Source of the DNA: a virus | Taxonomy: Duplodnaviria > Caudoviricetes | Direction: 5' to 3' (one strand) | Length of the DNA: 64,000 nt | Virus record (IMG/VR): IMGVR_UViG_3300011989_000257 | Coordinates: 32,001 to 96,000 of that record | Translations under genes and position numbers: made by a program | The notes under the pieces: model-generated | Seen by the model: the letters and a program-made list of their open reading frames with translations, nothing else | What the model was told of the DNA's origin: nothing | The model's database searches: none | In this document: positions 43,574-63,736 of the stretch, piece after piece | Numbering within the stretch: position 1 is the first letter of the stretch | Layout: each line of letters begins with the position of its first letter

Positions 43574-45604
43574 TTATCTGAACTCGTTAATGCTCCAATG
43601 TACAAGACCATCAACACGAACATGTCCAAAGTAACGGTTGTTCACCATCTTCTTCGCATAACGTGTCATAATACCCTTTACAGGTGCAAAGTTGAATGGA
43701 TTATACATAGTTGGGGTCAACTGCATTGGCACATATGGTGCATAGATGTAACCTGTGTCAAGAAGTGACTTACCCTTATGACCAATAATCATTGACCAGT
43801 GTGGGCTATATGGGTCACGATATACAGTGTAACGTCCACCGAGAGCACCAATCTTCTCAATACCCATGTTGTACTGGTCGCTTTCTGCTGATGCATCTGA
43901 TACATGGAAGTACTCAAGGTTATCAAGCAATGCTGAAATCTCTGAAGATACTACAATGAAGTTAGCACCACCACGAAGTGTAGACTTGTGAATCTGTGCA
44001 GAAATCTGGTTAATCTTAGTCATAAGCTCTTGGTTCCAGTCCTTCTGAGTGTAGTTAGTAGAGAAAGCAGCCATACGTCTCCAACCATTAACATCCCAAC
44101 GTGCCTGCCAAGGTGCGCCCTTACGAAGGTCACGGAGAATTTCACGGTCAATCTCAGCAGCAATCTGCTCTGAAAGGATAGCTGTCAACTCAGCCTCTGC
44201 GTCAATGTTGTGGAATGCAGAAACGTCTTGTGCCAACTCTGGTGACCATGTTGCACGAAGTTTTCTTTCCTCAACTGATACAGTTACTGAATCAAGCTTG
44301 AAGCTAACCTCACCGATTTCGGTCTCAAGCTCAAGTGAATCGTACTGTGCCCAAGCAATCTTGAAGAGCTGTGCAAGATTAGCCTTAGTCTCCTCAGTTG
44401 AACCGCTAGAAATAGCAGCGTCAAGAGCAGCAGCATCAACACCTACATAACCGTCAATTGTACCTGCTTGCTGAACAACTGGTTTAGCGAGGTCAAGCTC
44501 GATGTACATCTTACCCTCAGCATCGCAAGCAGCACCGTACTCTACGATACCCTTACCATATTTCTGAGTAACAACTCTGAAAGGAACTGACTCAAACTTA
44601 CGGAAAGCAGCAGTCTTAACTGTCTCTGAACCAGGAACATTAGCTGCTGGGAGTTCCTTCTGAGTAATAACCTTCAATGAAGCGAGGAATCCTTCAGTGT
44701 CCATTTCGTTTCCGTCAGGACCAGTCAACTTAGCAGCGTTGAATGAAGAGAAACCATCAATCTCAAGGATGACGTTACGTACAGTACCATCGAATCCACT
44801 CTTGAAGTACTTGTTAAGGTTATCAGCACCGAATGGGCGAACACCACCAGGAGTCAAGAACACTGGAATTGCGCTACCAACCTTGATAGTTACCTTACCC
44901 TTTGAGTTGTCATACAAGAAGTCGTTGTAGAACAAGTCGTAAAGTGACTTCTGGAAGTACTGAGTTACCTCAGGACCTGCTTGACGAAGAGCTGTTACAT
45001 GAAGACCCTCAGCCTCTGCACGTGCCTTAGCCTCATCGAAGCTAGTTGCATCTTCGATGGTCTCGTTCAACTGTGGAACGTACCATGAGTTCTTGTCGAG
45101 GTCATTGATTGTCTCATCTGGGAGATAGTATCTTGGCTCAACACGTCCTTCCTTGTTACGGTTAACTCTGTCATATCCCATAAGACCCTTATGACGACCA
45201 GTAGTACCATCAATGATATCACCTGGCTCTGTGCCACCAGTGTAATCTGCTGGGAGTTCCCACTCTCTCTCTGAAGTAACAGGGAGGATGAAGAACAACT
45301 TACCAACAGGAAGGTTCATTGCTTGTACTGAAACGATGTCGTTAGCAAGAAGTTTGCTGAACACACGTCTAATGATAGGGAAAACAACGGTCTCAAATGA
45401 ACCACTGTTATCAGAAGCAGTAGCCTCATAAATCAAGTGCTTTGCTTCATTCTCATACAATGTAGCAACATTCTCCTTGATACCCTCTGGAAGACCCTCT
45501 GTAAAGCCGAGGTTATCCCAACGGTTCTGAATGCTCTCACGTATCTGTTTTTGTGCGTTGTACTCAATATTGCCAACTACACCACTTGATAAAAATTCTT
45601 TCAT
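43574..45604 (-). CDS. major capsid protein, T4 gp23-like, with large insertion
   Basis: FPIIRRVF..LLANDIVSVQAM..PVG, RKLRATWSPELAQDV.AFHNIDAEAEL, GYIYAPYVP, GIMTRY; predicted maturation site IYE60/A. Confidence 0.95.
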   Translation of the reverse strand: MKEFLSSGVVGNIEYNAQKQIRESIQNRWDNLGFTEGLPEGIKENVATLYENEAKHLIYEATASDNSGSFETVVFPIIRRVFSKLLANDIVSVQAMNLPVGKLFFILPVTSEREWELPADYTGGTEPGDIIDGTTGRHKGLMGYDRVNRNKEGRVEPRYYLPDETINDLDKNSWYVPQLNETIEDATSFDEAKARAEAEGLHVTALRQAGPEVTQYFQKSLYDLFYNDFLYDNSKGKVTIKVGSAIPVFLTPGGVRPFGADNLNKYFKSGFDGTVRNVILEIDGFSSFNAAKLTGPDGNEMDTEGFLASLKVITQKELPAANVPGSETVKTAAFRKFESVPFRVVTQKYGKGIVEYGAACDAEGKMYIELDLAKPVVQQAGTIDGYVGVDAAALDAAISSGSTEETKANLAQLFKIAWAQYDSLELETEIGEVSFKLDSVTVSVEERKLRATWSPELAQDVSAFHNIDAEAELTAILSEQIAAEIDREILRDLRKGAPWQARWDVNGWRRMAAFSTNYTQKDWNQELMTKINQISAQIHKSTLRGGANFIVVSSEISALLDNLEYFHVSDASAESDQYNMGIEKIGALGGRYTVYRDPYSPHWSMIIGHKGKSLLDTGYIYAPYVPMQLTPTMYNPFNFAPVKGIMTRYAKKMVNNRYFGHVRVDGLVHWSINEFR

Positions 45605-47169: not shown

Positions 47170-47359
47170 TTAGAAAATAGATTTAATACATTATTTTTTA
47201 ATATAAATATAGATTAAATACCAAAAAAATTCATAAAATGCCTAAAATAATACATTTATGAGCAATTTATGACTTATATTTGATATCTAATTAATAAATA
47301 TTTGGATGAGAATGAATATTTATAGTAAATTTAAAAATAAAAACTATATATTTGCAAAT

Positions 47360-48067
47360 ATGATGAAACAGGATAATTTAGAAATAATAAAGGAAGGAAA
47401 AACAGGACATGGCATACTAATTGAAAATGATGGTTTCATATCATTGGATTTTGGTAAGAATAACCATCAGTTGAAAGAGGATATTAGTGAAAAAGGATGG
47501 TTTGTGCCTTACCCATTTGTTGTGGATGCTGTATTTCAGAAATTTGGAATTAAAAATGCAAACGGTAGAATTTACCCAGAGTCAATTCTAAAAAGAGAAG
47601 TTGAAAAATACCAGAATATGATTGCAGAAAGGATGGCGTTGGGAGAACTAAACCATCCAGCAGAGTCAACAATCGACTTGGGTAGAATAGCAATCAATAT
47701 TGTTGAACTTCATTGGGAGGGAGCTACTCTAGTAGGAAAGCTTGAAATCAACACGACTGAAGGATTTAGAAAGTATGGTATTGTAAGTACTCGTGGTGAC
47801 GATATGGCTAATCTTATTATAAATGGATATAAAATCGGTGTATCATCAAGAGGTGTTGGTTCTGTTGAACAAAAACTTGGACAATATATCGTAGGGGATG
47901 ACTTCGAACTTATATGTTGGGATGTAGTATCAAGTCCATCTACGCCAGGAGCCTATGTAGGAAAACCAGAGGAATTGCAACAATATATTGAAAGTAATAC
48001 TAGTAATAGTGACAAGAATTCAATTAATGAAAAGATTAATAAGATTAAAAATATCCTAAAGTCATAA
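47360..48067 (+). CDS. prohead maturation protease, T4 gp21-like
   Basis: KNANGRIYP, LGELNHP, IGVSSRGVGS, DFELICWDVVSSPSTPGA; start reassigned to ATG 47360. Confidence 0.9.
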   Translation: MMKQDNLEIIKEGKTGHGILIENDGFISLDFGKNNHQLKEDISEKGWFVPYPFVVDAVFQKFGIKNANGRIYPESILKREVEKYQNMIAERMALGELNHPAESTIDLGRIAINIVELHWEGATLVGKLEINTTEGFRKYGIVSTRGDDMANLIINGYKIGVSSRGVGSVEQKLGQYIVGDDFELICWDVVSSPSTPGAYVGKPEELQQYIESNTSNSDKNSINEKINKIKNILKS

Positions 48068-48071
48068 TATT

Positions 48072-48470
48072 ATGAAAAAAGTTATTAGATTAACCGAAAG
48101 CGATTTGCATGGTCTGATAAATGAATCGGTCACTAGAATAATAAATGAGATTGGTGTTTATCCAGATGGACAAACTGATTTATTCTTCGACCAAGACCAA
48201 GTTGACGAATACCGTTCATCTGCAAATGGTAGAGCAATCGAGGCTTTACTGAGGGCTGAGAGAGAATGCGGATGGAGACATATGAATTCAAAGGATATGG
48301 GGCGTTATACAGAGTATAAATGTTATCCTATTAGTGAGTACACATCAAAGGATAGACAAACCTTTATGGAAAGAATCAAAGCTTATGCTCCAGTGAAAGA
48401 TAACATAGAATTCGTATGCGTAAGGAATACATACATTAAAAGTTTTACAGTAAGAATTAAGAACATCTAA
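48072..48470 (+). CDS. IRLTES-leader cargo protein
   Basis: MKKVIRLTESDLHGLINESVTRIINE followed by a unique domain. Confidence 0.7.
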   Translation: MKKVIRLTESDLHGLINESVTRIINEIGVYPDGQTDLFFDQDQVDEYRSSANGRAIEALLRAERECGWRHMNSKDMGRYTEYKCYPISEYTSKDRQTFMERIKAYAPVKDNIEFVCVRNTYIKSFTVRIKNI

Positions 48471-48510: not shown

Positions 48511-48843
48511 TTATCCCATTGGTGGGAAGTCATCGTAATTGGCTTCAAGGTCAATTCTATCTTGCGCCCAATCTTCCATATCATCACCATTTACAATATC
48601 ATCTTGATAATTATCATTGTGAGTTCGGTCAAGAGGCTCTCCAGTTATTCCAAAATCGTGGTCATTTGTCATACCGTTAAATGGTGTGACTTCCTCTTCT
48701 TTCTCAAATGGTTGGTAGTTATTCAATACGTTGTCATTCTCACGCCAATCATTTCCCAATACGTCTTCCCTTATTATTCTTTTAACGGAATTCTCTATAA
48801 TACCTTTTAATTCTGATTCCGTAAGTCTTATAATTTTCTTCAT
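48511..48843 (-). CDS. IRLTES-leader cargo protein (acidic)
   Basis: MKKIIRLTESELKGIIENSVKRIIRE; late motif at 48865. Confidence 0.7.
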   Translation of the reverse strand: MKKIIRLTESELKGIIENSVKRIIREDVLGNDWRENDNVLNNYQPFEKEEEVTPFNGMTNDHDFGITGEPLDRTHNDNYQDDIVNGDDMEDWAQDRIDLEANYDDFPPMG

Positions 48844-49423: not shown

Positions 49424-49918
49424 TTATTGCCAACCCTTACCTTTTACGTATTTTGAGTCACCCCTATCGAATTTTCCAATTTCGTCAGTTGCTTTTTGAT
49501 ATTTGTCAATAGTGTTTTTTGTTGGTTTCATTTTGGAACGAGGATTAAATGCATGAGAACCATCTTTATCTTGTCTTGGGTAATATCCAGCATGCATTTG
49601 TGCATGCATTGGAGTCCAACGTCCCATTCCTCCATAAGCATTTCCAAATTGAGTAACTGTACCTTTTACGTCTTGGTGATAAGGTAAACCATTTTCATCA
49701 TATGTACCATCAAGTTCGTCATGTCCAAATTTGTCATTAAACCTATCTGTTGCAAATTGAGCTAAGTCTTCAGCTTTATCATCTTCCCCTTGCTCTGCTC
49801 GTTTCTTTGCAGCATTCGCATATGTTTTCCAATCAAGTTCTGTGAGTACCCTATTCACAGACTCTTTCACAATATTGTGAAGGTCACTCTCCGTTAATCT
49901 TATAAGTTTTTTATTCAT
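49424..49918 (-). CDS. IRLTES-leader cargo protein
   Basis: MNKKLIRLTESDLHNIVKESVNRVLTE followed by a unique domain. Confidence 0.75.
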   Translation of the reverse strand: MNKKLIRLTESDLHNIVKESVNRVLTELDWKTYANAAKKRAEQGEDDKAEDLAQFATDRFNDKFGHDELDGTYDENGLPYHQDVKGTVTQFGNAYGGMGRWTPMHAQMHAGYYPRQDKDGSHAFNPRSKMKPTKNTIDKYQKATDEIGKFDRGDSKYVKGKGWQ

Positions 49919-51660: not shown

Positions 51661-53697
51661 TTAATTCTTATCAACGAATTTCCCAAGTTCATCAATCATC
51701 TTGTCAAAGTCCTCATTAACCATTAAGGCATCACTGTCGTATATGTCAGCACGTTTATACTCTGTTTCCATGTGTTTACCCTTTCTCTCGTTCACTCTTG
51801 ATAGATACTCATTGAAAAGAATATCAAGTTTATCATTCTGCTCATTTATGATAGGTTTGTTAGAATGAATAGATTCCATTGGTGCATTTGGGTCATTTCC
51901 CATATCAGCAGTTGGCATTGAGCCTTCATTGCCACCCATCATTATGGTATCATCTCCAGGACCGCCAATATCACTTCCATCCATATTAGGGGCATCTCCC
52001 ATAGGAGGTGGTGGTGCTCCCATTCCGCCTCCAGGACCTCCACTACCATCCATGCCGCCTTGTCCACCTTGCATATCATCCATATACTCAGCTCCAGGTT
52101 CGCCATAGATTCTATCGACAGTATCAAATATACCTGTCTTCTTGATAATCTGAGTTGTCTTCTCAAGTTCAGCCGCAATACCCTTTTCAAGACGTATCTC
52201 TTCGAGATTTTCCTTAATTTCCTTCTCAGACCACTTCATAATCTGTTTCAATGCACGTGTCTGGGACATAACTGGAAGACCATTTCCTGGGTCGCTAACA
52301 GCATCCCTTACAGCATCAATCTTCTTCTGCATATTCTCAATCTCAAGCTGTTCAGCTTGTGTTGATGGATTATTCATTGTCAATGAGAAATTTGTTAATT
52401 CATCATTAAACCCTAACAAAAACAAATGAATTGATGCAACTTTTGTAAGTTCCATTAAGAATGCTTGCTGTATTCTGTTAACTAATCTAGTAAAACGAAT
52501 ATCCATAAGTGCAAGGTTCTTGCCATCCCCAGCAGCTTCTTCAAAGTTAAGAAATGACTTAGGTATTCTTAACGCAGTCAGTACTTTATTCTGTACGAAC
52601 TTGATATCATCCATTGCCGTAAGGTTTTGTCCTGCTGAAAGAGTATCAATAGGGTTTGGGGCATTTTCATCACGTACTGGTAAGAATACATCTTGGTCAA
52701 ATGCAAGCAAATTCTTTCTTAAGTCAATTTGACCAGTCATTGGGTCAATAATTGGAGTTCTCTTAAATTGATTTGCAATTTGTTCAACATATGCTTGCAC
52801 ATCAGCATCATCAATTGCGCCAACAAATATCTTATACACCCTACGTTCAATGGAACGTTCAAGACGATATATAAGCATCATATCTTCCATTAAGCTCAGC
52901 ATCCTCCAATGTCTTCTAGCAGCATTTAATGCTGATACGCCATACGGGAGATATAATGAGTTAGTCAATAGTCTAAAATGTGCAATCTGCCAATCTCTAA
53001 ATGGAACTTGCGAATTATTATCATCCAACCATATAAACTGAGTAGAAAGGTCAGCATCATCCTTTGTAATCCCGTTTACAGCAATTGAAGCTCCAGCACC
53101 ATATGGATTCTGTATACCATTCTCAATTCTCTCCATATTAAACACTGGAAGTTGCTTCCACCCCTTAACGCCATTCTTATGGTCAACATCTAATAGCATA
53201 AACTGATTTCCGTATTTACACATTGCACGGATAATCATAGGGGCAGTCAATTGTATATTCAATCTATTAACAAATAAATCTTCAAGGATACTCTTTATTC
53301 TGTCAGATTTGGAATATACATTGACTATATTACCTTTGTCTCCAGCAATACATGCTTCCTCCGCATATGTGTCAAGTGCAGCACCAATTTCTGGGAATGC
53401 ATCCATTAAATCTGCATCACGATACATAAGTTTAATGTTATTAAGTCCAGCATATGCAGTAACAGATAGGTTAACATTTGCTTTAACCCACCTATCTTTT
53501 AAATATTTATTTTGTCGTAGCTCTAATTTCTTTTGTATATAATCTTCTCTATCAGTGGTTCTATATAGTACATCATTATCATTGCCTTGAGACATATCAT
53601 ATGAGTTTATATGAGGCTCAATGGCAGAAGTAGGCGATGACCAATTACCAGTTATAGCTTTATCTAGAGCTTGAAATACAGTACTCTTCTTTGCCAT
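51661..53697 (-). CDS. portal protein, T4 gp20-like
   Basis: PEIGAALD, IAHFRL, MEDMMLIYRLERSIERRVYKIFVG, IDTLSAGQNL, ALRIPKSFL, DIRF. Confidence 0.92.
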   Translation of the reverse strand: MAKKSTVFQALDKAITGNWSSPTSAIEPHINSYDMSQGNDNDVLYRTTDREDYIQKKLELRQNKYLKDRWVKANVNLSVTAYAGLNNIKLMYRDADLMDAFPEIGAALDTYAEEACIAGDKGNIVNVYSKSDRIKSILEDLFVNRLNIQLTAPMIIRAMCKYGNQFMLLDVDHKNGVKGWKQLPVFNMERIENGIQNPYGAGASIAVNGITKDDADLSTQFIWLDDNNSQVPFRDWQIAHFRLLTNSLYLPYGVSALNAARRHWRMLSLMEDMMLIYRLERSIERRVYKIFVGAIDDADVQAYVEQIANQFKRTPIIDPMTGQIDLRKNLLAFDQDVFLPVRDENAPNPIDTLSAGQNLTAMDDIKFVQNKVLTALRIPKSFLNFEEAAGDGKNLALMDIRFTRLVNRIQQAFLMELTKVASIHLFLLGFNDELTNFSLTMNNPSTQAEQLEIENMQKKIDAVRDAVSDPGNGLPVMSQTRALKQIMKWSEKEIKENLEEIRLEKGIAAELEKTTQIIKKTGIFDTVDRIYGEPGAEYMDDMQGGQGGMDGSGGPGGGMGAPPPPMGDAPNMDGSDIGGPGDDTIMMGGNEGSMPTADMGNDPNAPMESIHSNKPIINEQNDKLDILFNEYLSRVNERKGKHMETEYKRADIYDSDALMVNEDFDKMIDELGKFVDKN

Positions 53698-53776: not shown

Positions 53777-55651
53777 TTATTTCAAGCCGCCAAACACCCA
53801 CATATGAGTTCCATTAATTACATTGGTTTTAGGAAAACTTTTCTGTGTATAAAACGGTAAGCCACTCTTTGGGGTAATTGTATAGCCATCCCTCAATTTA
53901 GACCTATGGGTATTCATAGACCCACCCATCATATAAGCATTTAATATTGCTTTATCTTTTTTCTGGGTATTCTGTATTCTATTAACAGTATATTGCATAA
54001 CAAATAGTCCCATTGCAAGAGAACATAAAGTATCATCATGAGCACCCTCCATATGGTCAATACGAGCAGTTTCACCCTTAAAAATCCAAGTATTCAATTC
54101 ATTAATCACTCTTACTGAACGAATTTTAAACTCATTGTTACGAACCATTCCTGCAAAATTAGATAAAACTGGATATCTATTTCCTTGAAAATGAAATCCT
54201 GGAAGTTTATCAGTATATCCATCGTAATTCTTTGTTGACCTTTGAACCATGTAGGTTTTCTGATTCATATCTTCATAATACATGTTCTTGTATCCCATAT
54301 TTAGCATTGTTATAATGGCCGCATCTCCTTGTCCGCCAGTAGCATCAACAACAACAAATGCATCATTATACATGGTTGCATATTGATAAGCAATAGCACC
54401 AATATCATCCCCAAGCTTCTTGCCAACATACTCAGCAACTTGTTCAATGATTGGCATCCCGTTTTCATCACGTCCATCCATGTCTATTATCTCAATTGCT
54501 GTACGGTCAGCAGCAGTTCCTCTGCTAGGGTCAATTGAGCAGATATATCTGTGACCATCGATTGGTTTTTTCCAGAACCAAGTTTCCTCACACAATGGGT
54601 CGATAAAATCATCAAGTGGCTCTCTTACGTTAAACCTTTCTTGCATCTCAATATATCTTGCTGCAACCACATTATCGTTTGAACCCATGAATGACACATC
54701 AAGTTCTTGGGCAATCTTCATTTCGTCATTGTTAAATGAATGGCACATATCCTCATACCAATCAGAAGTTGGTTTCCATCCATCATGCTCTAACTTTGCC
54801 CAACGTTCTTCGTCATATTTTACCCCTCCTTCGTTGTCAATTATTAAATCAGCATCATATTCCCATTCATTGGTTTCCTCATTTTTCCTCTTCCATACAA
54901 GATGTTTATTGAAACGAGGGTCTTGATACCAACGAAATTGTACTGCTGTAAAATTGTTCTCATGAGCCAATGCTTGACGGTAAATGTTATAATACAATGC
55001 ATCCATACCATTAGGCGTACTTACAATTACAGTCTTTGAATTTGGATTTGATGCCATTGTCGCAGCAGCAGTTGTATAAACTGAGATACCATCCTCGATG
55101 AATGCCGCCTCATCAAGAATTAGAGTACCTACTGCTGATATACCACGAGCAGCATTTGGTCCACTAGCACGAGCAATAACTCTACATCCATTAAATAATT
55201 TCAATTCACTTTTTGCATCTTTAACGAAAATAGATTTGAGGTTTTTTTCTGAATTCGAATCAGTTGAAAAATATTCTGGTCCCCACATCCATCGTGGAAC
55301 TTGTTCAAGGAAATCTCTAACCTTAATGATAATTTCATTAGCTTGGTCTAGTTTGTTTGCAATACAAAGTATAATCTCTGGAGATTCCTTCGATGCAAAT
55401 GCACATTGTGCAGCAGCCCATGCACTTGACAATGTTGTTATACCACATTGTCTTGGCTTAATTGCAATCACATTATTATGTTCAGCAAGTGCTTTAAGGA
55501 ATGCCCTCTGCCTTGGAAAACAATGGAATTGTGTTTTCTTACCTTTCATAGCATTAAAGGTAGAGAAATATTTTTCTATGAATGTAATTCTAGATTTATC
55601 AGCATAGCATAAAGCATAATCCCTCTGGGCTTCTTTATAATCAAAAATCAT
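53777..55651 (-). CDS. terminase large subunit, T4 gp17-like
   Basis: KPRQCGITT, LILDEAAF, VSTPNG, QELDVSF, SIDPSRG, HDDT. Confidence 0.95.
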   Translation of the reverse strand: MIFDYKEAQRDYALCYADKSRITFIEKYFSTFNAMKGKKTQFHCFPRQRAFLKALAEHNNVIAIKPRQCGITTLSSAWAAAQCAFASKESPEIILCIANKLDQANEIIIKVRDFLEQVPRWMWGPEYFSTDSNSEKNLKSIFVKDAKSELKLFNGCRVIARASGPNAARGISAVGTLILDEAAFIEDGISVYTTAAATMASNPNSKTVIVSTPNGMDALYYNIYRQALAHENNFTAVQFRWYQDPRFNKHLVWKRKNEETNEWEYDADLIIDNEGGVKYDEERWAKLEHDGWKPTSDWYEDMCHSFNNDEMKIAQELDVSFMGSNDNVVAARYIEMQERFNVREPLDDFIDPLCEETWFWKKPIDGHRYICSIDPSRGTAADRTAIEIIDMDGRDENGMPIIEQVAEYVGKKLGDDIGAIAYQYATMYNDAFVVVDATGGQGDAAIITMLNMGYKNMYYEDMNQKTYMVQRSTKNYDGYTDKLPGFHFQGNRYPVLSNFAGMVRNNEFKIRSVRVINELNTWIFKGETARIDHMEGAHDDTLCSLAMGLFVMQYTVNRIQNTQKKDKAILNAYMMGGSMNTHRSKLRDGYTITPKSGLPFYTQKSFPKTNVINGTHMWVFGGLK

Positions 55652-55826: not shown

Positions 55827-56087
55827 TCATCTTCGAGGATATGGAATGTTCCCTTCTTTATAGATTTTCACTGTAACGATAGTATCATTACTAGGATATA
55901 CGTTAAAACCGTTTTGGTTTCTATCATAGTCTAACCCACTTTGAGTTAAAACGTCTTCAATCTTATCTGCTAGCATAGAAGCAACTCCCATACCTTCATC
56001 AAATCCTTCTTTCACTATTTTATTCACTGATTCTTTCACGATTCTATGAAGGTCTTGTTCTGTTAATCTTATAAGTTTCTTATTCAT
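55827..56087 (-). CDS. IRLTES-leader cargo protein
   Basis: MNKKLIRLTEQDLHRIVKESVNKIVKE followed by a unique ~60-aa domain. Confidence 0.75.
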   Translation of the reverse strand: MNKKLIRLTEQDLHRIVKESVNKIVKEGFDEGMGVASMLADKIEDVLTQSGLDYDRNQNGFNVYPSNDTIVTVKIYKEGNIPYPRR

Positions 56088-58353: not shown

Positions 58354-58875
58354 TTATTTAAAATATGGAGATTGGAATGGTGTCAAAGGTTGATTCCTAT
58401 ATTCCTTTGGCATTACTTTCTCTGGTCTCTTCGTGCCTTCATAATCATTCAAAACATCGTTTATAACCTCATCGATTACACCCTTATAATTGAATGTTGA
58501 TTCCATTGGCATTCCACCATCTTGAGGGGCTGCATTCGAATCATCTGCAATGCTTTTTGCATATTTAACAACTGCTGCCTTATCCTCTGCCGACATTCCA
58601 TCAACAATGTTATTCAATTCATCATCTTCTGGATTTTCAGCACCCATTGCATTTGGGTCTCCACCACCCATAGGGTTTTGGTCACTCATTGCATTTGGGT
58701 CATCCATAGGAGGTTCGCCACCGCCCATTGGGTCATTCATCCCCATATCATCAGTACCCGTTGGTGGCATTGGAGCATTATCTAAATCACCCATGCCATC
58801 CATACCGCCACCTAGGTTACTGTTTGGTATCTCTAACTTAGTTGGTCTTTCTTCGAAGAAAGATTCAGTTAGATT
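58354..58875 (-). CDS. -1 frame extension of 58869..60554 (Gly/Met/Pro-rich)
   Basis: Frame open from the A10 run as NLTESFFEERPTKLEIPNSNLGGGMDG...; no start codon before 58803. Confidence 0.65.
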   Translation of the reverse strand, partial: NLTESFFEERPTKLEIPNSNLGGGMDGMGDLDNAPMPPTGTDDMGMNDPMGGGEPPMDDPNAMSDQNPMGGGDPNAMGAENPEDDELNNIVDGMSAEDKAAVVKYAKSIADDSNAAPQDGGMPMESTFNYKGVIDEVINDVLNDYEGTKRPEKVMPKEYRNQPLTPFQSPYFK

Positions 58876-60554
58876 TTTTTTTTGTTTCTCATTAAACGAT
58901 TGAAAGACTCTGCAATTGCGTTGTCGATTGCTTGTGGGTCGATGTCAAATGGAGCACCATCTCCAATCTTTTCACCGTAAGGAGTATCATTTCTTACAGA
59001 ATCATCATTCATGTCATAGTAGCCTGGGAATTCCTTCATATCCTTTGGAGGTAGTTCCATAACCTTTTTCTGATATGCTGGGTGCTTTCCGAAGTCATCC
59101 AATTTATTCATATTTCCACTTGGTACACGTCCAGCGTCCTTGAAAGGCTTCATACCATCCTCATTCATTCTTTGTCTACGCATTGCATTTCTGAAAGATT
59201 TTGTCTCATAGATTTGAACGCCACCTCTGCGCCTATTCTCCATTGGCATATCGTCATCGATTGGCTCTTCCTCATCGCCAAACTCATCGCCATCTTCATC
59301 GCCAAAGATATCGTCATCGCCATAAGCTTCAGCATCAACACTTGGAGCACCAATGCCAAGTTTGTCAGCAATCTGTGAAAGAATCTCTTCCATTGCGTCT
59401 AGACGAGACTCAACATCGTCCTCATAGACATCCTCTTCGCCACCATCGTTTGCAAGGTCTTCCTCACCGCCAAACTCTTCACCATCTTCAGCACCAAGGT
59501 CATCGCCTAATGCATCTCCTTCGCCTTCAGCGCCAAGGTCATCACCGATTGGGTCACCTTCTCCTTCCTCTGGAGCAGGAGCGCCATCAACATCTTCACC
59601 ACCGAAATCATCTAATGCCTCATCAATCTGTCTTCCCTTCTCACCATCAAAAGGTTGGTCATCACCGATTTCTCCAGTACCTGGTGTTGGCGTATTCTGG
59701 TTATCCGAATCATGCATTGAAGCACCTTCCTCAACAGTTCCATTCTTCATTTCACCAGTTTGTGAAACTTTCTTGTCACCATCATCGATATTTCTAGCTT
59801 CAGCATCATCAAAAGGAGCACTATCGCCAATTTCAGTGCCATGAGACTTGTCCATGTAGTCATCGTTTCCACGATTCCATCCAAGAACCTCTTCCTCATT
59901 TACAGTCTCGCACTGACATGGGTTTTTACCACATTTAGGGCAAGTCTCACCTTCAGTCATATTAGCAGGAATCTCAGCGTTAGTATAACCAGCATTTGCA
60001 CTTGCTGCATCACCGCATTCCTCTACACTGCTAGAGATGTTGTCTTTCTGTGATTTCTTGATGTCTGCATCACAAATACCGTTTGGACATTCTTTCTTAC
60101 CCTCTGCAATCCTCATTGCATTCTCCATAATCTGGCGTGAACGTGAAAGTTCGTTCTTCATTTTGTCTGTAGCCTCGATTACAACATTCTCTTTCTTGTC
60201 CAAATCCCAAGAACTAATGTTATAATCCTTGTTATTTGCAGCCTCTTTAAGAGACATCATTTTGAGGTCGAATTGTTTCTGTGCATTTGCGAAGGAATCA
60301 TATTGATAGTCCTTACGATTACGGAAACCACCAATATAATTGAAGTCTTCTTTTACAAGGTTTGCTTTATTTGAAGCCACTTTAATATAATAATGTGTCC
60401 CTTCTCTAACAATACCATATACATTACCATCAGCACCAAGTTTCTGATTTTCTACTGAACTATATGGAGTTTTCTTACTCTCAGTTTGAAGACCATAACC
60501 CATAAGTTCCTTCATACGGCTTAAGGTCTCGTTTGTGTTCTGTTTGTTATTCAT
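58869..60554 (-). CDS. large acidic prohead core/internal protein
   Basis: 561 aa; late motif at 60592; repeated (E/K)IGDxxPFD motifs; CPKCGKNPCQC; many xxE/S,A sites. Confidence 0.7.
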   Translation of the reverse strand: MNNKQNTNETLSRMKELMGYGLQTESKKTPYSSVENQKLGADGNVYGIVREGTHYYIKVASNKANLVKEDFNYIGGFRNRKDYQYDSFANAQKQFDLKMMSLKEAANNKDYNISSWDLDKKENVVIEATDKMKNELSRSRQIMENAMRIAEGKKECPNGICDADIKKSQKDNISSSVEECGDAASANAGYTNAEIPANMTEGETCPKCGKNPCQCETVNEEEVLGWNRGNDDYMDKSHGTEIGDSAPFDDAEARNIDDGDKKVSQTGEMKNGTVEEGASMHDSDNQNTPTPGTGEIGDDQPFDGEKGRQIDEALDDFGGEDVDGAPAPEEGEGDPIGDDLGAEGEGDALGDDLGAEDGEEFGGEEDLANDGGEEDVYEDDVESRLDAMEEILSQIADKLGIGAPSVDAEAYGDDDIFGDEDGDEFGDEEEPIDDDMPMENRRRGGVQIYETKSFRNAMRRQRMNEDGMKPFKDAGRVPSGNMNKLDDFGKHPAYQKKVMELPPKDMKEFPGYYDMNDDSVRNDTPYGEKIGDGAPFDIDPQAIDNAIAESFNRLMRNKKKI

Positions 60555-60625: not shown

Positions 60626-63600
60626 TTAGTACTGATATTGATTTTGCTGTGATATTGTACTACCAAAATCATCCATTGTACCTACTTGATTATCTCTTCC
60701 TCTATAGTCGAAGTTTACTTGTCTTATGTTAGGCGTAAACTTATCCAATGCTCTTATGTATAGTACACTTTTAGGTTTCATCTCTATATTGTCCCATTGT
60801 ATGCATATACAATAATTATATCCAATTAATTGGGATAATACCTTATCATAATAGCACTTATAAAGTTTACCATTCTCCTTAGATTGCATCAGTTTTCCGT
60901 AATTAGAAACAAAGTCCTTTAATGCCTTTCTTTCTGCATCCCAACGTTTCTTATAAGGATTATGTTCACTGTTTCCATCACCAACCCATTCTTCATTAAT
61001 CATGTTCTCCTTTAGTAAGGTAATGTATTTTTGAATTGATTCATTAAACCTTGTGGTTTTCTTTGTTAACATATCTTTTCTAGATACAATTTTAACATTT
61101 GCTGGGTCGAATATTACATAATTCATATTATTTTTACCCCTACCATATTTCATTCCGTGAAGATAGCCAATTGGTACTTTAGTTCCTATATATCCCATTG
61201 ATGCAACAACCTTAGACAAGTCTATCATCTCATCATAGAGGGCTATGTGGAAATCCCTACCACTTTTTACATTATCCCACTTTGTATCAGAATTTACTCT
61301 TTCTACCAATCTATTGAACCTTTCATCAGAATATTTCCTATTTCTGATTAAGCCTTGTTTGCAATAATTAATGAAAATATTTCTAGCATCATCTGGTGTC
61401 ATTGGTGCTACATAATCAAAATATGTATTTCCATCATCATCTGGTATTTCTACTTTATACAACTGTCCTGGTAAACTATCGTATATGCTATCATAATTAT
61501 CTAAAAAATCTTTGTAATCTTGTGCAGCGTTTTCTTTTTCATCGTCAGAAGAATCCCATTTTTTCTGCATATATTCTTTCCCTTTGGCATTCATTCTAGC
61601 AGAACGGATTATTTCAATATAATGTTCACCAGTTGACTTTTTGGATGTAACATATATTCCTTTTCCATACTCTTGAGAGCCTTCTCCCTTTCCTAAAAAT
61701 TCCAAATCAAACTTATCAAACACGGCATCTGTCCCATGCCAAGCTTGCATCTCATTTGTAGATTCATTAATTGAATTGCTTCTATCATATATAATGGTTC
61801 TAAGTTTCCAAAGTTTGTCAAGATATTCTGTTCTACGAAGTATCTTATAGACAACGTTTCCAGCGCCGCTTTCGCCATTCTTTTCAAGACTTGTTTTACG
61901 CATCCCCTTTATCTTTTTCCAAAGATAGTTTGCGTCCTCTCCAATTTCTTCAATTTCATGGGAATCAACAGTAGAATTTAAGACATTATACATATCATCA
62001 ATAATAGTCATTATATCTGCTGCTTTCTTCTTGATTGAAAACTTGTCAAGACCAATTGGCTTAATATCATTCATACTTGGTTTCTTAACCCATTCGTTTT
62101 CTTCAAGGTCATATATTCCTCCACTTTGAGGCATCTCACCTAAGTTTTGAACATATAGTTCAACTGGAAAGCCTAATATTGTCAAGTCACTATGCTCACT
62201 ATTCCATTCGTTTTTCTTTGCATCAAGATAATCCCTAACAAATTCAGTTTTATCATCAATTTCATCAAAATCAACAATAAGGTGCAAATCTATGTCAGAA
62301 AATTTAGACCAATTGAAATTACAAATTGAACCAGTAAGTATTATCCCACTTGGTTTAACCCAAGTAAGATTTACAAATTCCCAAAAATCATCTGCAATAT
62401 CCAATAATCTCAGCCTAACTCTAGAATCCAAGGTATTACTATCTATCCATATAGGGGCTAATTCACTTCTCTTCTTAAATGAAGAAAGGTCAATATCAGA
62501 AGAATCTACCTCAAAATCAATATTTTCAATTATGTTTTTGATTTGGCTTTCATTGACAATTACACTTTTGTTATTTTTCTTTGATTCATATTGTACATTT
62601 CCTTGAGGCTTAATGCCTTCTTCATAATACCTCATTATATCCGCAATAACTTGCTGAGGCTTTGCGTCAGAATATGACACTGAATGTAATGTATTACCCT
62701 TATTATCAGTAAAATCTATGTCAACATCAACAGCCTTTCTAACAAATGCTCTAATTGTGAAATATTGTTCCTTTGTTGGCTCTTTGGTCATATCCAAAAT
62801 ACCGCCATTTACACAACATCTAATTGCGCCATGATTCATAAAGTCAACGACATAGTTATAGCGATACTCATCACTCCATATTGGTATGTTGTTCTTTTTA
62901 TATATGCCTTCGATTCCTCTATGGTCTTCTTCTCTATACCCATTATTACCAAAATTAAGCAGCCTACCATCTGGAAGTATGTATCCAGCTTGACCTAAGT
63001 TGCTAGTAGTACCATATTGCTCAATTGCAAGTGATATTACATCATAACTCGTTTCTTCTGCTTGTTGACTAAGTGTTTCTGACTCATCTTCGGCATTCCA
63101 AAGTTTGGAGGCATCTTCATATTTCTTCAATAAAGCATTATATATTTTTACATCATTTGGGTCTATTTCTACCTCTGGATGCATTTTCTTCATCCATGAG
63201 AAGGCGTACCAATTCTGTTCTCCGTATTTTTCTGCACCTTGTTTTCTAAAATTTTCAAGGTCGGTTATTGTTTTATTAAACAAATCATCATACTTATTTT
63301 CGTTTATTGATAAACCATTTTTATTGGAATTTATTGACTCATCCAAATTAACTATAACTGGCTTATTCTCACGTTCCATTTTCATCCATTTATAGAATTC
63401 ATATGCATTACTTTTCTTTTGGAAATAATGTGGCATTTGGTTGATATCAATAAGGTTAATAACAACCCAATTACTAAATTTATCTGGCCTAAGCTCTTTT
63501 GCCCTATCTATAAATTCTTGAGGTATTTTAGACTCATTTATACTGCCTTCATCTGCTACATGACAATAGTTGCCTCCTACTGGCGGATTGTCGCTTTCTT

Positions 63601-63736
63601 GACCTAACTCATATTTATCAGCCTCTGGTCTTGCCTCATTGACACAAATAGAGTTATGGCTGACACTATTAGTGCCAACCATACTATTCTTGATTGTCAT
63701 TAAACTATCCTCTCTAAGTGTGATAGATTTTCCCAT
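60626..63736 (-). CDS. multidomain virion polyprotein: GYILPDG domain, Pol-beta-type nucleotidyltransferase, ADP-ribosyltransferase-like domain, C-terminal domain
   Basis: LTGSICNFNWSKFSDIDLHL (hGS..DxD), VELYVQ; AWHGT..FDKFD..GEG...YGKGIY...LYKVEI...NYVIFD; start reassigned to MGKSITLRE. Confidence 0.75.
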   Translation of the reverse strand: MGKSITLREDSLMTIKNSMVGTNSVSHNSICVNEARPEADKYELGQESDNPPVGGNYCHVADEGSINESKIPQEFIDRAKELRPDKFSNWVVINLIDINQMPHYFQKKSNAYEFYKWMKMERENKPVIVNLDESINSNKNGLSINENKYDDLFNKTITDLENFRKQGAEKYGEQNWYAFSWMKKMHPEVEIDPNDVKIYNALLKKYEDASKLWNAEDESETLSQQAEETSYDVISLAIEQYGTTSNLGQAGYILPDGRLLNFGNNGYREEDHRGIEGIYKKNNIPIWSDEYRYNYVVDFMNHGAIRCCVNGGILDMTKEPTKEQYFTIRAFVRKAVDVDIDFTDNKGNTLHSVSYSDAKPQQVIADIMRYYEEGIKPQGNVQYESKKNNKSVIVNESQIKNIIENIDFEVDSSDIDLSSFKKRSELAPIWIDSNTLDSRVRLRLLDIADDFWEFVNLTWVKPSGIILTGSICNFNWSKFSDIDLHLIVDFDEIDDKTEFVRDYLDAKKNEWNSEHSDLTILGFPVELYVQNLGEMPQSGGIYDLEENEWVKKPSMNDIKPIGLDKFSIKKKAADIMTIIDDMYNVLNSTVDSHEIEEIGEDANYLWKKIKGMRKTSLEKNGESGAGNVVYKILRRTEYLDKLWKLRTIIYDRSNSINESTNEMQAWHGTDAVFDKFDLEFLGKGEGSQEYGKGIYVTSKKSTGEHYIEIIRSARMNAKGKEYMQKKWDSSDDEKENAAQDYKDFLDNYDSIYDSLPGQLYKVEIPDDDGNTYFDYVAPMTPDDARNIFINYCKQGLIRNRKYSDERFNRLVERVNSDTKWDNVKSGRDFHIALYDEMIDLSKVVASMGYIGTKVPIGYLHGMKYGRGKNNMNYVIFDPANVKIVSRKDMLTKKTTRFNESIQKYITLLKENMINEEWVGDGNSEHNPYKKRWDAERKALKDFVSNYGKLMQSKENGKLYKCYYDKVLSQLIGYNYCICIQWDNIEMKPKSVLYIRALDKFTPNIRQVNFDYRGRDNQVGTMDDFGSTISQQNQYQY

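Follow-up and report, generated by a model that had tools for sequence, protein, structure and literature searches.

A modular head-gene protein of a jumbo phage with predicted prohead-protease sites at its domain joints

Polyvalent proteins combine several unrelated effector-type domains in one phage polypeptide (Iyer, Burroughs, Anand, de Souza, Aravind 2017; PMC5512222). The internal proteins and Alt of phage T4, injected head proteins that carry a capsid-targeting sequence (CTS) and are processed by gp21, are single-domain products whose ends are trimmed (PMC9026906, PMC9958956), and the cleavage motif of the T4 protease gp21 is L/I-X-E (PMC9026906). In phiKZ, 201phi2-1 and SPN3US, which carry ejection or inner-body proteins, many head proteins are cut after Glu, and long propeptides with tandem sites yield small clearable peptides (PMC5694885, PMC10052503). 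Here, I describe a 1036-amino-acid (aa) protein encoded in a window of 64,000 nucleotides, bases 32001-96000 of the virus record IMGVR_UViG_3300011989_000257, which is 412,514 bp long, rated complete and derived from a jumbo phage of gut or rumen type. The protein is probably a capsid-cargo polyprotein that the head protease cuts into separate enzymes ejected with the DNA; its packaging, cleavage, ejection and targets are predicted here from sequence.

By its make-up the protein can be counted among the polyvalent proteins as Iyer et al. define them (PMC5512222): it unites several distinct domains, of which ART-PolyVal (ART, ADP-ribosyltransferase) is a signature of the class and, like the nucleotidyltransferase, of effector type; it has virion genes as neighbours, belongs to a family of mosaic architectures and is predicted to travel with the DNA. 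It differs in that no embedded peptidase (MPTase or other) was found, a component that is frequent but not obligatory in the class. In addition, every joint carries the motif of a separately encoded T4-type head protease, and the modules sit in a fixed frame of N-terminal leader, obligatory nucleotidyltransferase (NTase) and C-terminal domain with two insertion zones. With T4 cargo it shares the S77 protease family, the L/I-X-E rule, a gene in or near the head module, an ADP-ribosyltransferase in the cargo, and a predicted N-terminal targeting peptide removed by the protease. However, one precursor would here yield four or five mature proteins, the leader measures ~62-68 aa against ~10 in T4, and the ART domain is of the H-Y-D (PolyVal) rather than the R-S-E (Alt) type. 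The likeness to phiKZ, 201phi2-1 and SPN3US lies in the jumbo phage itself, the gp21 homologue and, judged from sequence, cuts after Glu with tandem sites; those phages have the motif A/S/G-X-E and lose N-terminal propeptides only, whereas the present protein resembles T4 in its aliphatic P3 and has its sites between folded enzyme domains.

Joints and modules of the polyprotein

The open reading frame (ORF) is intact, with 1036 aa and a stop, and alignment with the N-termini of relatives supports its ATG start (Table 1 gives the coordinates). An initial annotation of the window had read the protein as beads on a string with linkers ending in xxE/(S,A,N), and the beads were recovered as a leader, module A, module B, NTase, ART and C-domain. 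The predicted cuts, marked by a slash, fall at E34/A, E68/S, E133/S, E146/N, E384/S, E396/S, E658/S, E662/M, E899/S, E910/N and E915/E, and an additional joint site, NIIE404/N, lies directly before the NTase module. All the motifs that had been listed exist, with two corrections: VQYE ends at E384 and not at 383, and LLKE910 and MINE915 lie inside the conserved head of the C-domain, not in a variable linker.

AlphaFold (AF2) models were made for the whole protein from alignment A5 and separately for residues 147-397; A5, adopted after local tests, took the place of the mixed-fragment alignments A1 and A2, which gave ART pieces of 0% identity or left the ART region of the query uncovered. Folded blocks were seen at 70-133, 147-381 (with an internal break at 220-230), 409-649 and ~929-1006, and low-confidence segments at 1-69, 134-146, 382-408, the stretch from 650 on, and 1007-1036. 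Region 650-928 was poorly modelled because few homologues cover it, with most of 650-778 and 845-928 at a predicted local distance difference test score (pLDDT) of 25-45. Low-confidence segments account for 24% of the length that could be assessed, and eight of the nine [LIVM]xE[SANG] sites are in or at them (P~9e-5); E546 is the single such site inside a folded domain. Mapped in this way, as the initial annotation had proposed, the joint sites stand at borders between order and disorder and not inside folded domains. Some of them bracket short linkers (E133 with E146, and E384 with E396 and E404): the low-pLDDT segment between the first two covers exactly 134-146, with homology breakpoints at q130-134 and q140-144.

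The strict form of the motif is over-represented: [LIV]NE[SANG] occurs five times against 0.31 expected from shuffles, and SINE three times against 0.04. Elsewhere in the window, ~18,000 aa contain 12 [LIV]NE[SANG] sites, most of which belong to proteins of the head cluster. Every joint ends in Glu. Of 60 distinct contexts preceding the NTase, all have Glu at P1 and 58 have I/L/V/M at P3, P2 being free; the spacers vary there with the terminal hydrophobic-x-Glu kept. The NTase end logo reads N-S-I-x-E/(S or G) over 74 distinct contexts, module B ends in Y-E/S-K, and the C-domain starts after x-N-E/S, all conserved whatever follows. The joint motif matches the L/I-X-E rule of gp21, and the conservation of P3 and P1 by residue class, with P2 free, argues for a signal at the protein and not the DNA level.

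The joints are also where the family recombines. Parts of the polyprotein are shared by 494 relatives (691-1810 aa, on contigs of up to ~420 kb), and the BLAST breakpoints at query positions 60-69, 130-134, 140-144, 380-384, 395-404, 655-666 and 895-899 are the predicted sites; other breakpoints lie within modules (245-254, 295-299, 735-739 and 860-879). Annotation of 121 relatives with a 14-module library gave 71 architectures, among which the query's own order is unique, and a grammar of leader-[A, C-B3, Bh-B1, ART-PolyVal, WG repeats]-NTase-[K, B2, ART, D]-C-domain. Comparing domain content among relatives, another check that had been suggested, therefore showed the sites to coincide with evolutionary module boundaries.

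Three kinds of natural variant support the proposal that the protein arose by fusion of cargo genes. Minimal forms made of leader, NTase and C-domain (411-458 aa) occur on contigs of 285-409 kb. On a 372-kb relative (L002:17168-18151(+)), an ART-PolyVal-like gene of 327 aa stands alone between terminase and portal and has a leader-like N-terminus (...ANICE/M, then AYHGTG). On a 157-kb contig (L004:5105-6381(+)), two genes of 298 aa and 126 aa take the place of the single one, and the break coincides exactly with the joint between NTase and C-domain: the upstream one ends ...NSID-stop, the two overlap by TGATG, and the C-domain gene starts with its own leader-like MKKIIVNENHLKLFCEE.

Two observations on family members may be added. 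The commonest module before the C-domain is module D, which is absent from the window's protein: it has ~285 aa (P0002:903-1185, P0056:746-1025), starts KE[IV]IKEYLEKD, ends PYPIYRNE, contains conserved NEWCIHF and GYDFAF motifs and has no Pfam family. P0436 (278 aa, on a 99-kb contig) is a reduced member that retains the leader end and the C-domain; its NTase region is apparently degenerate, with G-S and D-x-D not visible.

It is unlikely, though worth weighing, that the protein works uncleaved, as a multidomain polyvalent protein whose whole 117-kDa chain is packaged or cytoplasmic and whose joints are flexible linkers or short homologies for recombination. Such a chain would agree with the joints being precisely the recombination boundaries, with a P3 that is not always aliphatic, and with the full-length transfer or packaging of some polyvalent proteins, e.g. 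N4 vRNAP and ArdC (PMC5512222). Against it, the residue-class conservation (P3 I/L/V, P1 Glu invariant, P2 free) is a protein-level signature, tandem sites flank variable spacers, and the natural split at a joint on the 157-kb contig shows that the parts work apart. When an embedded peptidase for autoprocessing was sought, neither the query nor six large relatives showed any peptidase family; with the gene of a matching head protease close by, none would be needed.

Identity of the modules

The NTase is the sole module found in every relative. Residues 405-658 are a Pol-beta superfamily nucleotidyltransferase, as had been annotated: the region matches phrog_36119 (4e-41), homologues 50% identical to it carry PF01909, one relative has a weak PF01909/PF18765 match, and the top Foldseek matches are CdnE (E 1.8e-3, prob 0.87), AAD(9), ANT(4'), AadA and MNT. 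The expected GS...DxD pattern is present as G469-S470 and D481-I-D483, and E526 in VELYV is the likely third carboxylate, a role assigned from sequence. The annotation had also placed an internal leader-like copy before this module, which was borne out in part. A hidden Markov model (HMM) of the genome's leader family gave no match in the protein; in relatives, NQLKTIKE/N at this place does resemble leader residues 10-17, SLLKIKE/N.

Residues 659-899 have 4220 homologues at E<=1e-3, many of them embedded in proteins of 2000-7000 aa. The proposed ADP-ribosyltransferase-like character was upheld through these homologues: 30/36 aligned homologues of residues 660-900 match PF18760 (ART-PolyVal), phmmer E-values between the ART region and PF18760-matching proteins run from 1e-11 to 1e-28, and the family members P0081 and P0025 match PF18760 at 1e-19 to 2e-20. 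The query region itself stays below Pfam cut-offs (DUF3990 18 bits, PARP 13.8 bits), and a PDB profile search with it returned only spurious coiled-coil or designed-protein matches. The published active site of ART-PolyVal (Tox-ART-HYD2 clade) is H-Y-D (PMC5512222). H667 (WHGT), the His of strand 1, and Y695 (GIYVT), the Tyr of strand 2, are invariant in the ART alignment A3. On the NYVIFD strand, where the Asp of strand 5 would be sought, a near-invariant N872 occupies the PARP Glu position and D877 stands where relatives have N or D, with an ART model too poor to place them. The domain thus seems to belong to the H-Y-x PolyVal group; it shows neither the R-S-E active site of the T4 Alt/ModA/ModB clade nor homology to Alt/VIP2, and the analogy with Alt that had been drawn applies to the proposed role and not to the clade.

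Module B, noted earlier as a GYILPDG..DHR domain, proved confidently folded (pLDDT 85.5 in the separate model) and without a family. Its alpha/beta core carries the motifs GYILPDG, DHR, GAIR and PTxEQ, with invariant L, G, H, F, G-I-R, P-T and Q, and at least three paralogous versions exist in the family. It has no Pfam or PDB family, and Foldseek against PDB gave no match at E<=0.001; its viral structural relatives occur within large uncharacterised phage proteins. The helical hairpin at its N-terminus took up the whole of both VIA-align lists, which therefore say hardly anything about the alpha/beta core. A PD-(D/E)XK nuclease or a CdiA toxin (profile E=0.16) was considered for this module, and the hints were too weak to use.

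Module A (pLDDT 78-86 over 70-133) is found in only some relatives, and no family was found for it. The leader, aligned over 62 sequences, has a pLDDT below 50 over 1-69, and its end logo is H-V-N/E-E/. The C-domain is the most conserved part, with a mean column identity of 64%; it has no Pfam or PDB match, a PDB profile search giving only spurious coiled-coil or designed-protein hits, and Pfam searches of module B and C-domain members showed nothing consistent.

Head-gene setting and leader-tagged proteins

The window has a G+C content of ~33% and holds nearly all its genes on the minus strand. Megablast against 50,697 phage records found no match, and thus no near-identical phage record. The polyprotein gene lies 5 kb from the terminase gene and 13 kb from the protease gene (Table 1).

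Table 1. Features of the polyprotein and of the head-gene region. Positions are those of the window unless stated otherwise; a slash marks a predicted cut.
Feature	Residues	Position	Strand	Remarks
Whole gene, modular cargo polyprotein (predicted)	1-1036	60626..63736	-	Order L-A-B-NTase-ART-Z
Leader	1-68	63533..63736	-	Disordered, family-conserved; sites CVNE34/A and SINE68/S (HV[N/E]E/ in relatives)
Module A	69-133	63338..63532	-	Small alpha/beta domain, without family; ends NLDE133/S
Linker	134-146	63299..63337	-	Flanked by E133/S and SINE146/N
Module B	147-384	62585..63298	-	Helical hairpin (147-225) and alpha/beta core; ends VQYE384/SK
Linker	385-404	62525..62584	-	Three tandem sites E384/S, IVNE396/S, NIIE404/N; pLDDT <50 over 382-408
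Pol-beta-fold nucleotidyltransferase (NTase)	405-658	61763..62524	-	G469-S470, D481, D483, E526; ends NSINE658/S
ART-PolyVal-type ADP-ribosyltransferase-like domain	659-899	61040..61762	-	H667, Y695, N872/D877; ends RFNE899/S
C-domain Z	900-1036	60629..61039	-	Folded core ~929-1006; always C-terminal
Large terminase		53777-55651		T4-like head module
gp20-type portal		51661-53697		T4-like head module
Prohead protease, T4 gp21 / Peptidase_S77 family		47306-48067	+	PF03420 1.3e-25, phrog_207
gp23-type major capsid protein		43574-45604	-	PF07068 2.5e-73
27-aa-leader protein		48072-48470	+	
27-aa-leader protein		48511-48843	-	
27-aa-leader protein		49424-49918	-	
27-aa-leader protein		55827-56087	-	
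27-aa-leader protein		64072-64761	-	Beyond the window
Further 27-aa-leader copies		genome 6081-6494, 379396-404344		
561-aa acidic protein		58869-60554	-	
149-aa ORF		58354-58803	-	

The gene order is kept at ~50% identity as family gene, acidic ~560-aa protein, 2-4 genes, TerL and portal (followed by the S77 protease in L003). In diverged relatives, too, the gene thus sits in the head module with conserved synteny, in line with the virion setting first proposed for it. This synteny with TerL, portal and S77 protease across ~50% divergence makes it very improbable that the product is a multi-enzyme acting late in the cytoplasm, not associated with the virion and encoded in the head cluster by chance. 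Such an enzyme would fit the stand-alone NTase homologues, which occur in Lak, Maribacter, cyanophage and Caulobacter phages and are found outside head clusters in many phages. It would not fit a leader that carries protease-type sites, nor a split C-domain that gains a leader of the kind seen on small head-cluster proteins.

The protease aligns to T4 gp21 (5JBL) at 6.6e-17 and retains the GELNHP (His), SSRG (Ser) and Asp motifs; its C-terminal part holds a candidate site for self-cleavage, QQYIE229/S. The capsid protein was used to calibrate the cleavage rule: at its N-terminus one block aligns with the propeptide of T4 gp23 and another with the start of mature gp23*, and between them lies a candidate maturation site, LIYE60/ATAS. 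The head-protease sites that the annotation had predicted are thus met by a T4 gp21-type S77 protease in the same genome and by a capsid propeptide ending in I-Y-E60/A. The capsid protein has 676 aa, and its tblastn matches fall in two pieces (~residues 9-100 and 390-667); by comparison with T4-like capsid proteins, this indicates an extra, inserted domain of ~290 aa.

About 12 small proteins, several of them in the head cluster, share a nearly identical N-terminal leader of ~27 aa (MKKIIRLTESDLHNIVKESVNRVLNE) followed by unrelated sequence. This leader has three tandem sites, LTE/S, VKE/S and LNE/, and is likely a capsid-targeting tag removed by the protease. Two internal copies of it were seen in a 599-aa protein (genome 152316-154115), and in the window an 86-aa leader-tagged gene takes the slot held in L002 by the stand-alone ART gene.

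That the polyprotein is packaged and cut, with the pieces not being injected effectors, is improbable but has points in its favour. The pieces would then work within the prohead or capsid, as core- or scaffold-like components or as enzymes modifying phage DNA or proteins, or would be degraded and expelled like T4 gp22, gp67 and gp68. T4 gp21 degrades core proteins to small peptides (PMC9958956), and leader, NTase and C-domain are conserved like structural genes and syntenic with the acidic scaffold-like 561-aa protein. On the other side, cuts at sites that spare the folded domains would leave these whole, and the variable cargo (ART-PolyVal) is of conflict-system type. Together with its rapid turnover into 71 architectures, this type is typical of host-directed effectors.

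The 561-aa protein itself has a very acidic low-complexity centre, a CxxC...CxC motif and ten hydrophobic-x-Glu sites; it matches no family and is possibly a scaffold or core protein. In relatives its gene always comes next after the polyprotein gene, and the L002 counterpart shows 53% identity. It is directly followed by the 149-aa ORF, which has Pro, Gly, Met and Asp repeats.

Proposed route, counter-evidence and meaning

In the capsid-cargo reading, the polyprotein would be made late, alongside the head proteins, and its conserved N-terminal leader, perhaps also the C-domain, would take it into the prohead core. There, the activated T4 gp21-type S77 protease would cut after Glu at the hydrophobic-x-Glu joints, which stand singly or as 2-3 in tandem and flank short Lys/Asn-rich spacers. 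Cleavage would free domain A, domain B, the NTase, the ADP-ribosyltransferase-like enzyme and the C-domain, with leader and spacers being cleared. On ejection the freed fragments would accompany the DNA and reach their targets in the host, serving takeover or counter-defence. The joints may serve as universal connectors, so that modules could be inserted, lost or swapped with targeting and processing undisturbed. I would give even odds to the broader idea that jumbo phages of this clade use head-protease sites to turn one head gene into a plug-and-play cassette array: any domain placed between two hydrophobic-x-Glu joints would be packaged automatically by way of the common leader and C-domain frame, freed inside the capsid and injected. 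On this idea, no phage effector polyprotein before it would have been processed by a prohead protease, and the origin of the 71 cargo combinations among 121 relatives would be explained.

The computational tests that might have overturned this reading all came out in its favour, but several points weigh against the route. To my knowledge, the family has no cultured relative. Splitting a chain internally into several mature products has no proven precedent: in SPN3US, all known prohead-protease cuts save self-cleavage remove only N-terminal propeptides (PMC10052503). The loose motif [LIVM]xE[SANG] is only ~2-fold enriched (9 vs 4.3, P=0.027), P3 is non-aliphatic at some joints (Y-R-N-E/S before the C-domain in many relatives, R-F-N-E/S and Q-Y-E/S here), and the conserved joints could also be simple linkers or recombination joints. 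The polyprotein was not matched by an HMM built from the IRLTESDLHNIVKES leader family of the genome, so its leader is a separate type, and the third catalytic residue of the ART domain is ambiguous (N872 or D877).

Two further systems offer parallels. Polymorphic toxins (CdiA with VENN, Rhs with DPxGL, MuF-fused phage toxins) also have a conserved delivery frame, a boundary motif and combinatorial modules, but their variable module is a single C-terminal tip, whereas here several variable modules lie inside the chain, no immunity gene can be seen, and delivery would go via capsid and tail rather than a secretion system. Picorna-like and poty-like RNA viruses likewise make one product with short conserved protease sites in interdomain linkers, cutting being predicted in the present case. 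The differences are a tailed phage with double-stranded DNA and, as proposed, a protease acting in trans inside the assembled prohead on products that are accessory effectors and not a replication core. Literature searches brought up neither this protein family nor a case of a prohead protease cutting an effector polyprotein, and the Jug jumbo-phage paper makes no mention of either.

If the proposal is true, it would join two separately known ideas, polyvalent proteins with several effectors and T4-like targeting to the capsid followed by protease trimming, into one mechanism that would widen the range of what a phage injects before its genome. The predicted cut sites are precise and testable, and enzyme and substrate form a defined pair that can be expressed without phage culture. 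The joint-plus-leader frame is a natural analogue of the engineered T4 CTS protein-delivery system. The injected enzymes to characterise would then be the obligatory nucleotidyltransferase, the His/Arg domain without a family and the conserved C-domain, all of which belong to abundant gut and rumen jumbo phages.

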